Source: a virus
Direction: 5' to 3' (one strand)
IMG/VR virus record: IMGVR_UViG_3300031788_000002
Location: 1-64,000 of that record
Length of the DNA stretch: 64,000 bases
Shown: positions 6,818 through 52,072 of the stretch, piece by piece
Layout of the letters: each line of letters starts with the position of its first letter
How positions within the stretch are numbered: the stretch's first letter is position 1
The notes under the pieces: model-generated
Told to the model about the DNA's origin: nothing
The model's database searches: none
What the model saw: the letters and a program-made list of their open reading frames with translations, nothing else
Position numbers and translations under genes: made by a program

Positions 6818-7294
6818 ATGCCCCGCACGATGAGCGTTTGTGAGTCACAAATTACAACGGAAGAGAGCGCTGACCGGCTGTACGCTTTCCTCAAGACCGG
6901 CGCGGATACAACGCAGCCTGAAGTCAATGCATCGGCGGTGACGGGCTTGAACCCGGATCCGTACGCAGCGCCGCCTCTGCGCAAAGACCTCGAAGGCACG
7001 GACAGCGCCCTGTGGGGACAAGAGCCGGAAAGCGATGGCAAGGCCACCGCTCAGGTGCACTCGAACGCGGTGTGGGATGGCTTTCGTGCTGGGCGGGAGC
7101 GGTTCCTTGAACGTAACTTCGATTCCTTTAAGCCGAGTCAAGAGCAGACGCAGGCACTGTTGAGCGGTCAGCTCGAGCACTTCAAAAGTGGGGATCACGA
7201 AAGCTCGACGCCCTTCACGCGAGACCACAGCAAGCGCCGCCCTGTAGAGGTCGAAACCGTGTTCGACAAAACCAAGCGGCTCTTGGGTACGTGA
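6818..7294 (+). CDS. Hypothetical protein (leaderless)
   Basis: TGCTACGCT 6 nt before ATG; 158 aa ORF. Confidence 0.65.
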   Translation: MPRTMSVCESQITTEESADRLYAFLKTGADTTQPEVNASAVTGLNPDPYAAPPLRKDLEGTDSALWGQEPESDGKATAQVHSNAVWDGFRAGRERFLERNFDSFKPSQEQTQALLSGQLEHFKSGDHESSTPFTRDHSKRRPVEVETVFDKTKRLLGT

Positions 7295-7320
7295 AAGCAG
7301 CAAGCATCCGAGGGCATAAC
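7294..7320 (+). promoter_or_regulatory. Class A promoter in front of the sigma gene (AAA-N16-GGCATAAC)
   Basis: Motif at 7313-7320, followed by GGAG RBS and ATG 7339. Confidence 0.6.
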
Positions 7321-7338
7321 ATCCTCGGAGAACACCAC

Positions 7339-8151
7339 ATGCCGACGATCGATCCTCTCAACAGCTATCTTCGGAAGAAGACGGCCGCCCAACAAAAATG
7401 TGAAGAAGACGATCACGCCTTGGTTACCCAGTGGCAGCAGGCGCATCAAGGCGACGCTGTAAACCCCGCGCTGACGCATCAAGTACTTCAGCGCTTTCAG
7501 CCTACGATTCAAACGGCGCTGAAGAAGTACAAATCGCCGCTCACGGGACCGGGCATCAACGCCGCTGCAAAAACCTATGCGGTTGAAGCCCTCAGAACGT
7601 ACGACCCCTCCCGCGGCGCTTCTTTTAACACGCATTTGACCAATACGTTGCGGCGGCTGCATCGAGAGAACAATCAAGCGCAAGCCTCCTACGTTCCGGA
7701 AGACCATGTGACGTACTTCGGGCCCGCTCAGCGCGCGCACGATGAATTCGTCGATGAGTTTGGGCGGACACCGACGCCGGAAGAGCATGAGCAACGGCTG
7801 AATGAAATGCTACCGGAACGCCGCCGTTTGGCCCCCGGGGCCTTGGCACCCATCCTGGCGCTCAAGCGCAACACCGTGGTCTCCAGCAACTTCGCTTCGT
7901 CTCCCAACACGTTTGCGCAGGATCTAGAGCAGCAAAATGTGGCGCTTGGGCGCCATGACCTCGCTGAGCCGGATCGCAAAGTCTACGACTTGATCTACGG
8001 CAACAACGTGACGAGTACCGGGGACATCGCTAAGCGCTTAGGTATGAGCGACCCCGCGGTTTCTCGTGCAAAGACCCGCATCGAAAAGACCCTCTCCCAA
8101 CCGGTGGGCGCTTCCAAGCGCAAGAAGCCGGGCGCTCTTTCTTCCCCGTAA
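7339..8151 (+). CDS. RNA polymerase sigma-70 family factor, group 3 (FliA/WhiG/SigB-like)
   Basis: Region 2 AVEALRTYDPSRGASFNTHL, region 3 GRTPTPEE, region 4 HTH STGDIAKRLGMSDPAVSR. Confidence 0.85.
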   Translation: MPTIDPLNSYLRKKTAAQQKCEEDDHALVTQWQQAHQGDAVNPALTHQVLQRFQPTIQTALKKYKSPLTGPGINAAAKTYAVEALRTYDPSRGASFNTHLTNTLRRLHRENNQAQASYVPEDHVTYFGPAQRAHDEFVDEFGRTPTPEEHEQRLNEMLPERRRLAPGALAPILALKRNTVVSSNFASSPNTFAQDLEQQNVALGRHDLAEPDRKVYDLIYGNNVTSTGDIAKRLGMSDPAVSRAKTRIEKTLSQPVGASKRKKPGALSSP

Positions 8152-20752: not shown

Positions 20753-20863
20753 GCTCATTCACTGAACTCTGAAGAAGAACCAACGAGGACGCTAAGGAGC
20801 AAGTGGCCGAAAGACGTAAGTTTTGCAGCAAAATCCATCGCGGATGCTGAGGACGAGCGCGTC

Positions 20864-21226
20864 ATGAACACGATGAGGGTGTTCACAGAGTCGAACCTCG
20901 ACTCGTACTCGCTGCTGATCTGGGAGGTGCTTTCGGAAGAAGTGCAACTGTACTTGCTGCCGAACTCGTTCCTCGACAGCGAAGATATAGCTGTACTGCA
21001 AGCCGCTCAGGGCAGCTACATCAACAGCGTAGTAACGTCACCGCCGGCGGAGGTAGCGCTCGACAAGATCAACAGTGCAGTCTGCAAGAAGGCAGAGCAC
21101 GTCAACGAAACGTTTCAAGGGACGCGGTGGGCGCAGCGCTACTCGAAGTACTTGTGGGCAGAGTACGCCCACGCTCCGATCAAGCGCATCGTCACCTGCG
21201 TCTATCAAGCTGGGTTCATGCTGTAG
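20864..21226 (+). CDS. Hypothetical protein
   Basis: GAGGA RBS; 120 aa ORF. Confidence 0.6.
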   Translation: MNTMRVFTESNLDSYSLLIWEVLSEEVQLYLLPNSFLDSEDIAVLQAAQGSYINSVVTSPPAEVALDKINSAVCKKAEHVNETFQGTRWAQRYSKYLWAEYAHAPIKRIVTCVYQAGFML

Positions 21227-50336: not shown

Positions 50337-50678
50337 GTGGCCTCCGACAAGGACAAAAGCGAAGAACGCGCGCAGCAAACAGCGCAGATGAAAATGCGCT
50401 CGGCGATCAACGATGCCTACGCCGCGCTTCAAGGAGATGCGGCCACACAATCCTTCGTGGCATTTACTTTTGAAGAAGCCGTGGACAGCCAGATCGAACG
50501 CATTTCGGGAACCAGTACGCGCTTGCGGCCCAATGAGCTGGATCGCGTGACCGCGATTCAGAACAATTTAACCCAAGCCATTCAAGTCATTAAGCAGTCG
50601 CCCCCGTCGGCCTTCATGGCCCCCGATCCGACGCGGGACGTCAATACACCCGTTACCCCTACAGGGAGTGGATCATGA
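50337..50678 (+). CDS. Hypothetical (probable virion) protein
   Basis: TGCTAGACT 6 nt before GTG. Confidence 0.6.
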   Translation: MASDKDKSEERAQQTAQMKMRSAINDAYAALQGDAATQSFVAFTFEEAVDSQIERISGTSTRLRPNELDRVTAIQNNLTQAIQVIKQSPPSAFMAPDPTRDVNTPVTPTGSGS

Positions 50679-51274
50679 GAGCAGTGACGGCAGCAGTAGG
50701 TTCTCGTGGAATTGATGCGTTGACCCTTGTGAACACACCCGCCGTGGCCGCTGGGTTGAAGAAAAGCGGTGTTGATTTTGTTGGGCAGTACCTTGGCCGG
50801 GTTACGCCGGCGAGCGTCGCTTGCCTCTTGGAAGCCGGCTTGGCCTTTACACCGATTACTTACGCCGACATCTTCGATCCCAATGACGGGCTTGAGGTAC
50901 TGAAGCTCCTCGGTGCTCCTTCAGGATGCACGGTTTGGCTCGACGTGGAATCGGTAACGACGCTGACGGTCGCTGAATTGCAACAGAAGATCAATGCCTG
51001 GGCGAGTGCCTTGGCAGGCGCGGGGTATCAACCCGGCGTGTACGTGGGCTGCTTGAGCTTGTTGACGAGCGCGGAGCTCTACGCACTCAAGGTGGTGCGC
51101 TACTGGAAGTCGCAGAGCTGCGTACGGGATCGCTTTAACAATCTGGTCGAGCCTACATGCGGTTGGTGCATGTACCAGCTTTACCCCAGCGTTAGCTGGG
51201 CAGGGGTCTGGTCGGACGTCAACTTCGTGCAGCAAGACCATAAGGGGCGCTTGCCTGTCTTGGTGCAGGCGTAG
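50675..51274 (+). CDS. GH25-like / DUF1906 glycoside hydrolase (putative endolysin)
   Basis: GID, FVGQYL, TVWLDVE, AGYQPGVY, MYQ, DVN. Confidence 0.8.
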   Translation: MRAVTAAVGSRGIDALTLVNTPAVAAGLKKSGVDFVGQYLGRVTPASVACLLEAGLAFTPITYADIFDPNDGLEVLKLLGAPSGCTVWLDVESVTTLTVAELQQKINAWASALAGAGYQPGVYVGCLSLLTSAELYALKVVRYWKSQSCVRDRFNNLVEPTCGWCMYQLYPSVSWAGVWSDVNFVQQDHKGRLPVLVQA

Positions 51275-51280
51275 CTTTTC

Positions 51281-51309
51281 TTGACAAGGGATCGAACTTG
51301 TTTTAGCCT
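51281..51309 (+). promoter_or_regulatory. Host sigma70 promoter TTGACA-N17-TAGCCT
   Basis: Perfect -35, 17-nt spacer, TAnnnT -10. Confidence 0.75.
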
Positions 51310-51314
51310 TCCCA

Positions 51315-51394
51315 CTCCTTCGTTGGTTCGGGTGATTCGTCGCGTGTGTGCTCTTCGAAGACCCGCTGGTTAGCTCCGGCGGGTCTTCGTCTTT
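51315..51394 (+). ncRNA. Putative ~80-nt small RNA
   Basis: Own promoter and terminator, no ORF, 5' CUCCUU. Confidence 0.55.
51356..51394 (+). terminator. Rho-independent terminator
   Basis: CGAAGACCCGCTGG-ttagct-CCGGCGGGTCTTCG followed by TCTTT. Confidence 0.8.
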
Positions 51395-51412
51395 GTGGTG
51401 TAGAATCACGCG

Positions 51413-52072
51413 GTGGCTCTCGACCTACAGATCATCCAACCGCAAAACGCGATTCCCGTTAGTCGCACCACGCTGGTGACCATCGGAGGGCTGCGCGCGC
51501 TGGATGTTTTGGGTTCGGACTTTCGCAGTGTTGATACGGTGTACATCAACGACGTGGAGAGCCCCGATGTCATCGTGGTCAGCGCAACGCGTCTCCTCGC
51601 GCAGTTGCCAAGCAGCTTGCAGAGCTTCCCCGACGTTCAAAGCGTTCAGGTACTGAGCCGCCAGCTGACCCTGTCGAAAAGCAGCGTCCTACGCTTTATC
51701 ATCGGAGATACCCCCGGTACGGTGTTTGGTATTCTTCGGTTGCTTCAGCTCTTCGTGAAAGTGCTTCTGAGTGAACCCGGCAGCGACATATTCAACAAGA
51801 CGTTGGGGGGTGCGCTCCTTCGTTCTGTAGGCACTACCTTTGGCAGCGAAGAGGGCGACAACATTCGAACCAATGCGCTGATCGCGGTAGACCGAACCTC
51901 GCGACAGATCATTTCAATTCAAAGCCGCAATGGTACGCTGCCCCGCGACGAGCGCTTGCTCAGTGCAAAGCTGATGGGCGCCACGTTTTCTCGAGCAAGC
52001 ACGTCCATGTTTCTCAGCATTGAAGTCATGTCCCAGACCGGTGTACCGGCACGAATGAACATGGAGCTATGA
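51413..52072 (+). CDS. Baseplate wedge gp25-like protein with N-terminal IPT/TIG-like domain
   Basis: GILRLLQLFVKVLLSEPGSDIF....GG...ERL; directly precedes the baseplate J-like gene. Confidence 0.65.
   Translation: MALDLQIIQPQNAIPVSRTTLVTIGGLRALDVLGSDFRSVDTVYINDVESPDVIVVSATRLLAQLPSSLQSFPDVQSVQVLSRQLTLSKSSVLRFIIGDTPGTVFGILRLLQLFVKVLLSEPGSDIFNKTLGGALLRSVGTTFGSEEGDNIRTNALIAVDRTSRQIISIQSRNGTLPRDERLLSAKLMGATFSRASTSMFLSIEVMSQTGVPARMNMEL

Follow-up and report, generated by a model that had tools for sequence, protein, structure and literature searches.

A conserved gene-less transcription unit beside a leaderless baseplate promoter in uncultured large phages most likely makes a non-coding RNA of about 80 bases

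A gene-less stretch of 115 bases in the genome of an uncultured large phage has its own bacterial-type promoter and terminator, and most likely makes a non-coding RNA of about 80 bases. The same unit was found at the same junction, directly before the leaderless promoter of a baseplate operon, in 17 distinct relatives with a neighbouring-protein identity of 40–78%. The best reading is that of a new RNA family of a known kind, which has the layout of the small RNAs DapZ and MicL and occurs in uncultured large phages from peat and soil. We tentatively regard the RNA itself as the functional product, that is, as a phage riboregulator. The original prediction had described a stand-alone small RNA with an anti-Shine-Dalgarno (anti-SD) 5' end that pairs, among others, with a site at 20777. 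The ORF-less unit, which runs from promoter to terminator and is followed by a leaderless promoter, was confirmed and is conserved, whereas the anti-SD seed, the site at 20777 and the stand-alone character were not borne out.

Elements of the unit and its neighbourhood

The analysed DNA (the window, 64,000 nucleotides) corresponds to the opening 64 kb of one contig of 167,481 bp (G+C content 58.6%) from a virus record, whose completeness was estimated by CheckV to be about 89%. Near-identical DNA is present in many peat metagenomes. The features of the locus are listed in Table 1. When the sequence was read directly, every element named in the original prediction was present where it had been placed.

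Table 1. Positions of the unit, its flanking genes and related features in the window.
Feature	Position	Strand	Basis
Upstream gene, 199-aa Rv2525c-like glycoside-hydrolase (lysin-like) protein	50675..51274	+	Pfam PF08924, E 4e-7
Small 7-bp hairpin spanning the lysin stop codon	51252..51271	+	Hairpin scan
−35 hexamer TTGACA	51281..51286	+	Sequence
Promoter spacer, 17 nt	51287..51303	+	Sequence
−10 hexamer TAGCCT	51304..51309	+	Sequence
5' arm of the RNA, about 42 nt, predicted unstructured, A-poor, pyrimidine-rich	51314..51355	+	Composition, no conserved structure
Intrinsic terminator hairpin, 14 bp, 6-nt loop, 10 G-C pairs	51356..51389	+	Hairpin scan, folding
T-rich tail TCTTTGTGG, expected 3' end of the RNA	51390..51398	+	Sequence
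Promoter of the next operon without −35: TG, TAGAAT at 51401–51406, six bases, start codon	51399..51412	+	Sequence
219-aa protein, gene 1 of the baseplate operon, leaderless GTG start	51413..52072	+	ORF list
10-nt complement of 51320–51329, GAACCAACGA; chance match, not part of the system	20777..20786	+	Sequence

The −10 hexamer is followed by a 46-nt U/G/C-rich and A-poor stretch, which contains ACUCCUUCGUUGGUUC from position 51314 onward. The start of the RNA at 51314–51316 was deduced from promoter spacing only. Folding of an 85-nt RNA yielded −33.8 kcal/mol, with a z-score of −3.4 compared to shuffled sequences. The unit is crossed only by mechanical ORFs of 30–43 aa, which lack an SD and have no frame common to the relatives. 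There is no conserved ORF across the unit, in agreement with the original prediction. A small peptide as its product was rejected on the same grounds (SD absent, no shared frame); the open frames result from the A-poor composition.

Scanning the whole window with 4227 Rfam models gave no match at the gathering threshold. The best match of a permissive Rfam scan was ctRNA_pGA1, which scored 22 bits compared to a threshold of 45 and covered the hairpin and tail only. A tRNA search gave no match. A riboswitch or attenuator was rejected because no alternative pairing can rival the 14-bp stem and because the next gene has a promoter of its own. Similarly, a primer for a replication origin was rejected, since a GC-rich hairpin and not an AT-rich unwinding region follows the promoter.

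The promoter of the next gene, which the original prediction had located at 51401, is part of an arrangement that is conserved in relatives: TA(G/A/C)nnT, followed by 5–7 nt and GTG or ATG, is kept in nearly all of them, with or without the unit. The 219-aa gene opens a run of very large baseplate-type genes and is followed by a gene for a 1375-aa protein, which has a weak match to Baseplate_J and a match to the baseplate wedge subunit of phage G. Gene callers often overlook the leaderless GTG and place the start 20 codons downstream, which shortens the product to 199 aa (P0014–P0016, P0022, P0025, P0027). Both SD-led and leaderless genes occur in this phage, as judged from crude ORF picks whose start positions are approximate, here and in the target scan below. 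The promoter of the unit is the only one with a −35; elsewhere this genome uses leaderless promoters that lack such an element.

Conservation of the unit in relatives

For the 219-aa protein, 249 homologs were found in metagenomes and none among the cultured phages of the collection searched. The DNA upstream of about 28 distinct homologs was compared. In the 17 relatives that carry the unit, its parts follow each other in the order TTGAC(N), spacer, −10, RNA stretch, hairpin with T tract, and leaderless promoter. In an 18th relative (L015) the hairpin is kept and the contig ends before the position of the promoter. TTGAC occurs in 16 of the 17 and TTGCC in the remaining one; in most relatives, the TGA stop codon of whichever gene lies upstream is located inside the −35 TTGAC. 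The spacer has a length of 17 nt in the window and in 12 of the 17 relatives, and of 16 or 18 nt in the other five. All relatives have an A at position 2 and a T at position 6 of the −10, and most members of the close clade share an initial TAG. In the nine lineages of this close clade, TTGAC, the spacing and A2/T6 are fixed, whereas the spacer sequence has drifted to an ungapped pairwise identity of 26%, which is the random level. Hexamers kept at a distance of 16–18 nt around a drifting spacer, as expected of a bacterial-type transcription unit, were thus found in 17 relatives.

The hairpins of the relatives comprise 10–16 bp and are in all cases followed by a T-rich tail. Compensatory changes were found at three of 11 consensus pairs in nine relatives, so that the intrinsic terminator is supported by covariation. 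The hairpin ends 23–50 nt before the downstream start and 11 to about 30 nt before the downstream −10. In the more distant relatives L032–L041, the T tract of the terminator runs into a conserved TTTTTAGCCC motif about 17–20 nt before this −10, which may be a −35-like element of the downstream promoter.

The transcribed stretch that precedes the hairpin is 21–53 nt long in 16 of the 17 units and 115 nt long in one, and has no conserved structure among the relatives. Ungapped identity of the arms is 31–32%, compared to 41% at third codon positions of the next gene, and the arm sequence appears about as diverged as random. The pooled arms of the 17 units contain 58.7% pyrimidine and 12.7% A, compared to 20.7% A genome-wide; more than half of the arm is pyrimidine in 15 units, and the arm of the window contains 5% A. 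This pyrimidine-rich, A-poor composition seems to be all that is conserved in the arm.

A maximum-likelihood tree built from the neighbouring protein has carriers of the unit throughout the family and requires that the whole unit was lost at least four to five times. The unit therefore looks old and repeatedly lost as a whole. Junctions of the main clade have either the full unit or nothing, with no remnants that consist of the promoter or the terminator only. Three outlying lineages have a terminator only, and in the most distant lineages the genes overlap. In L021, L016, L027 and L018, both flanking genes are present with no unit between them. At least five lineages lack the unit, which is hence dispensable there. 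From the conservation, the covariation, the loss of whole units and the uniqueness described below, we conclude that promoter and terminator are both under selection and form one unit.

The unit stays next to the leaderless promoter in all 17 relatives, whichever gene lies upstream. Immediately 5' of it, at least four different genes were found: the Rv2525c-like lysin is located there in the window and in L010, a PG_binding_1 lysin in many other relatives, and a Lys-rich protein in L033 and L034, whereas L001 and L002 have only a homolog of a 113-aa gene and no lysin at this place. Insertions at the junction are always located 5' of the unit.

Chance level and uniqueness in the genome

The pattern TTGACN-N16-18-TANNNT has one match in the 167-kb genome, compared to 5.8 ± 2.6 expected from shuffled sequences. 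The promoter match alone is no more than chance; the unit exceeds chance because it is conserved at the same junction in relatives. In the contigs L001 and L031 (118 kb and 103 kb), the strict pattern likewise has a single match, which is that of the unit, and canonical −35/−10 promoters are nearly absent from this genome and from these two records. The background of a relaxed pattern is 0.014 matches per 150 nt. An automated promoter scan omitted the TTGACA/TAGCCT promoter, since its −10 matches the consensus in only three of six positions.

The original prediction had suggested a search for sibling units in the same genome. None was found by means of blastn-short, the promoter pattern or a terminator scan; a look-alike with a 14-nt stem at 104976 lies inside a coding sequence. 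The hairpin at 51356–51389 is among only about eight strong terminators in the 167-kb genome. The other terminators are located 10–35 nt past a stop codon, whereas that of the unit lies 82 nt past it, with the promoter in between. None of the leaderless promoters elsewhere in the genome, including those before other structural genes, is accompanied by such a unit. Scanning viral contigs for the pattern of 3' arm and tail retrieved a known relative and otherwise only three chance matches.

RNA cover at the junction

RNA data were available as assembled contigs of public peat metatranscriptomes. Three contigs from three runs and three studies bridge the lysin stop codon and enter the unit (51072–51342, 51045–51346 and 51047–51291); the second of these ends in adapter. 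They also pass through the small hairpin that spans the stop codon (51252–51271), which therefore does not stop transcription and is no effective terminator. This hairpin has no counterpart at the junction in relatives. No RNA contig in four metatranscriptomes crosses the hairpin at 51356–51389. Cover is absent from 51365 to 51436 and resumes at 51437, such contigs being unable to reveal a small RNA. This is the cover expected if transcription ends at the hairpin and starts anew near 51413.

As the contigs run from the lysin gene to just before the hairpin, this hairpin also ends the lysin message. The sequence of the unit is thus at the same time the 3' UTR of the lysin mRNA, and the RNA is, contrary to the original prediction, not strictly stand-alone. 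The contigs cover 51045–51346 joined to the lysin gene and can reveal neither a start at 51314 nor the strand nor an 80-nt species, so that we infer the independent transcript rather than see it. Contigs of the lysin 3' end (starting at 51045–51072) have the highest depth of all contigs aligned to the genome in two of the three runs, and in one run the remaining lysin gene has no cover. The higher depth is a weak hint at a stable 3' fragment that is protected by the terminator.

The 5' arm and its possible partners

The motif CUCCUU, which the original prediction had taken for an anti-SD seed, is located at 51315–51320. At the 5' end it is specific to this phage: in relatives, CUCC or UCCC occur elsewhere in the arm or are missing. 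GCUC is present in nine of nine close relatives and is the only word common to all of them; CUCC is present in six. The seed, which was expected to be conserved in related phages, is not, whereas the transcription unit is.

Pairing with the SD was assessed by the best duplex of each arm with the SD sequence, i.e. the complement of the 16S rRNA tail. Compared to random segments, the arm of the window lies at the 33rd percentile, and compared to its own shuffles at the 40th. Among the 17 units, pairing is significant in L044 only, and the combined p is 0.24 compared to shuffles and 0.025 compared to the locus background, the latter value reflecting the pyrimidine content. A conserved unpaired C/U-rich motif that is complementary to the SD above chance was thus not found in the 17 units. 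In the distant relative L044 (1090–1200), the stretch CCUCCUUUCU of the arm is similar to the 16S rRNA tail and pairs with AAAGGAG; the next gene of this relative has a strong SD (AAGGAGGAG) in place of the leaderless start.

The 10-nt complement at 20777 exists as predicted, at chance level. It lies about 85 nt upstream of an ATG at 20864 and covers no ribosome binding site (RBS). By chance, a 44-nt arm should have about 46 complementary 9-mers across the genome; the count without self matches was 66, none of them at an RBS. A duplex scan of 202 start regions against 60 shuffled RNAs yielded a minimum of −43.2 compared to −42.2 ± 2.3 and a top-10 mean of −40.7 compared to −38.1 ± 1.1. It gave no clear target, and the phage start regions that had been proposed as targets contain no outlier. 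The longest complement in the genome, 12 nt at G000 74087–74098, pairs with 51341–51352 and is located about 95 nt upstream of an ORF at 74184; away from any RBS, it is probably due to chance. A translational switch by means of an anti-SD seed is not supported by these results and should be dropped.

Function of the unit

It is plausible to assume that the RNA itself is the functional product and acts as a riboregulator, an explanation that we favour while giving it somewhat less than even probability. A promoter of the housekeeping-sigma type would start the RNA near 51314–51316, and the 14-bp hairpin with its T tract would end it near 51395–51398, which corresponds to about 80 nt. The product would consist of an unstructured, pyrimidine-rich and A-poor 5' arm of about 40 nt and the terminator stem-loop. 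The same terminator also ends the lysin message, the RNA sequence doubling as the 3' UTR of this mRNA, and would shield from upstream transcription the leaderless promoter that serves the baseplate operon and lies 11 nt downstream. Because no other promoter of the genome has a −35, unmodified host holoenzyme should read the unit, and host RNA polymerase could make the riboregulator possibly before any phage protein exists. A sole canonical promoter fits a product that is required in large amounts or ahead of the takeover of transcription by the phage. The single-stranded arm would then pair with purine-rich RNA of the host or the phage, with a specificity that changes between phages.

The riboregulator is supported by the promoter geometry, which is kept in 17 relatives around a spacer that drifts to random, by the compensatory changes in the hairpin, by the limited length range and the shared composition of the arms, and by the lack of a conserved ORF. 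Further support comes from an old unit that is lost whole, from a terminator located 82 nt past the stop codon, and from RNA contigs that stop before the hairpin. Against it count the near-random arm, which has no conserved seed and no target among phage start regions, and the dispensability of the unit in at least five lineages. Furthermore, all RNA seen could be lysin 3' UTR, since the contigs join the region to the lysin gene. A role in cis fits as well, because the unit always lies directly against the same leaderless promoter.

The main rival, considerably less probable in our view than the riboregulator, is a device that acts at the level of transcription on the adjacent promoter and makes the RNA as a by-product. 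Polymerases fired from the only −35-dependent promoter of the genome would stop 15 nt short of the point at which the next promoter, which has no −35, begins its leaderless message. Either early polymerases would occlude the late promoter until a phage factor disables −35 recognition, or a polymerase that terminates after about 80 nt would keep sigma, slide and re-initiate at the neighbouring −10, which the unit would thus feed. This rival accounts for an architecture that is conserved when the RNA sequence is not, for the tie to the same leaderless promoter in 17 of 17 carriers despite differing upstream genes, and for the short distance between hairpin and downstream start. The two promoters belong to complementary classes, one with a perfect −35 and a weak −10, the other with a strong −10 and no −35, and −35/−10 promoters are almost absent from these phages. 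The phage sigma-4 blockers AsiA, gp39 and P7 silence −10/−35 promoters and spare extended −10 ones (PMC7403470), and after intrinsic termination polymerases stay on the DNA and re-initiate nearby (PMC6978380, PMC6978322, PMC10372574). However, the unit accompanies none of the other leaderless promoters in the genome, five lineages manage without it, and the distance from hairpin to −10 varies. A feeder that needs −35 recognition would fail if the phage blocks this recognition. Moreover, occlusion by passing polymerases is usually weak. The Pfam model of AsiA had no match in the genome, a weak negative because sigma-4 blockers are small and diverse. More specifically, the unit could be a hand-over or timer between the two promoter classes, the RNA being incidental; this we consider unlikely. 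The −35 promoter would capture unmodified holoenzyme, whose run of about 80 nt would be short enough to retain sigma. The RNA would be released at the promoter without a −35, and the polymerase would either block this promoter until −35 recognition is switched off by the phage, or slide in and start the baseplate message.

It is quite improbable that the unit is just a terminator at the end of a long 3' UTR and that its promoter-like hexamers are not used. The RNA contigs are continuous from the lysin gene to 51346, the −10 is weak (three of six positions), and a single promoter match per genome is within chance, all of which agrees with such a terminator. On the other hand, TTGAC, the 16–18-nt spacing and A2/T6 persist in 17 relatives despite a changing spacer and upstream gene, the other terminators of the genome lie much closer to the stop codon, and the main clade never keeps the hairpin without the promoter. 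Slightly more doubtful still is silencing of SD-led host or early phage mRNAs by the CUCCUU seed, which would spare leaderless late mRNAs. The motif and both classes of genes are present, the arms are pyrimidine-rich in 15 of 17 units, L044 has its 16S-like stretch, and C-rich small RNAs that pair with SD regions exist in other bacteria (6C, RsaE/RoxS). Yet the motif is conserved in neither position nor presence, SD pairing does not exceed controls, no start region is an outlier, the site at 20777 is a chance match away from an RBS, and a single short RNA would need to prevail over ribosomes on a very large number of mRNAs. Least probable of all is a late antitermination leader of the lambda pR'-tR' type, in which a phage factor would permit read-through into the structural genes. 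The parts come in the same order: first a promoter of the housekeeping type, then a short RNA and a strong terminator, and after these a long operon of late structural genes. Antitermination activity is also known from gp39 and P7 (PMC7403470). However, the operon has its own conserved promoter with a leaderless start even in relatives without the unit, the first gene would have no SD on a message made by read-through, the sequence between −35 and −10 is not conserved, and no RNA contig crosses the hairpin.

Comparison with known systems

DapZ and MicL of enterobacteria are type I 3'-UTR small RNAs, which have their own promoter at the end of the upstream gene. The unit shares their layout: the promoter overlaps the end of the upstream ORF, with the stop codon inside the −35 in most relatives, the terminator is shared with the upstream mRNA, and a single-stranded arm precedes the hairpin. 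In contrast to DapZ and MicL, it is phage-borne, has neither a sequence relation to them nor an Rfam match, and its terminator abuts another promoter. It also lacks the conserved seed that is typical of type I RNAs; arm identity is near random and no target stands out.

The oop RNA of lambda, 77 nt long, is made from a promoter of its own, ends at its own terminator and is complementary to its target cII as an antisense RNA. The unit is likewise a short, ORF-less phage element with an intrinsic terminator that host polymerase would read. Unlike oop, it has nothing encoded on the opposite strand, and its target, if any, therefore lies elsewhere. More recent examples of short phage regulatory RNAs have been described (PMC12197685). 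The unit also resembles a moron in having its own host-type promoter and terminator, in lying between genes that are adjacent in some relatives, and in being dispensable. Morons of the HK97/HK022 type are units of promoter, gene and terminator inserted between late genes. The unit contains no protein-coding gene, has no distinct base composition, and is apparently old and repeatedly lost rather than recently gained.

With the 6S RNA of lambda, made from pR' to tR' under the control of Q, the unit has in common a constitutive promoter, a short terminated RNA and a late structural operon. The operon here has its own leaderless promoter, and the spacer holds no conserved Q-binding site, since its sequence is not conserved. 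The late genes do not depend on read-through: a TAGAAT-type promoter is kept with and without the unit. 6C/B11 of Actinobacteria and RsaE/RoxS of Firmicutes are C-rich small RNAs that pair with SD regions, and their C-rich motifs are conserved and located in loops. The unit, too, has an unpaired pyrimidine-rich stretch that could pair with a purine-rich RBS, but its motif is conserved neither in sequence nor in position, and its pairing does not exceed chance. For this region, no match to the models of 6C/B11 or RsaE/RoxS was reported by the permissive Rfam scan.

To our knowledge, little has been learned about non-coding RNAs in virulent and giant phages, and this metagenome-only family has been without a described example. 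Here, a unit that contains no gene has persisted although its carriers diverged deeply. Host polymerase probably reads it before, or independently of, the phage programme, because it has the only canonical housekeeping promoter among leaderless promoters that lack a −35. If the RNA acts in trans, it would represent a new family of phage riboregulators whose specificity changes quickly. A unit that works in cis would show how a terminator and the promoter after it can be coupled in nature. If polymerases are indeed handed over, it would be a natural, conserved case of polymerase recycling after termination or of promoter interference that is specific for a promoter class.

Homologs of the lysin and a possible host

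Homologs of the lysin are encoded on L045, a contig of a Candidatus Sulfotelmatobacter MAG (56% identity), and on L046, a contig of a Myxococcales MAG (43% identity). An acidobacterial host is compatible with the G+C content and the peat origin; the binned contigs may themselves be phage. The protein encoded at 7291–8151 of the window has weak sub-threshold Pfam matches to Sigma70_r3 (16.7 bits) and HTH_24 (20 bits). In L045, the lysin gene is followed by TTGACA, then by 17–18 nt and a −10 that is positioned for a leaderless gene.
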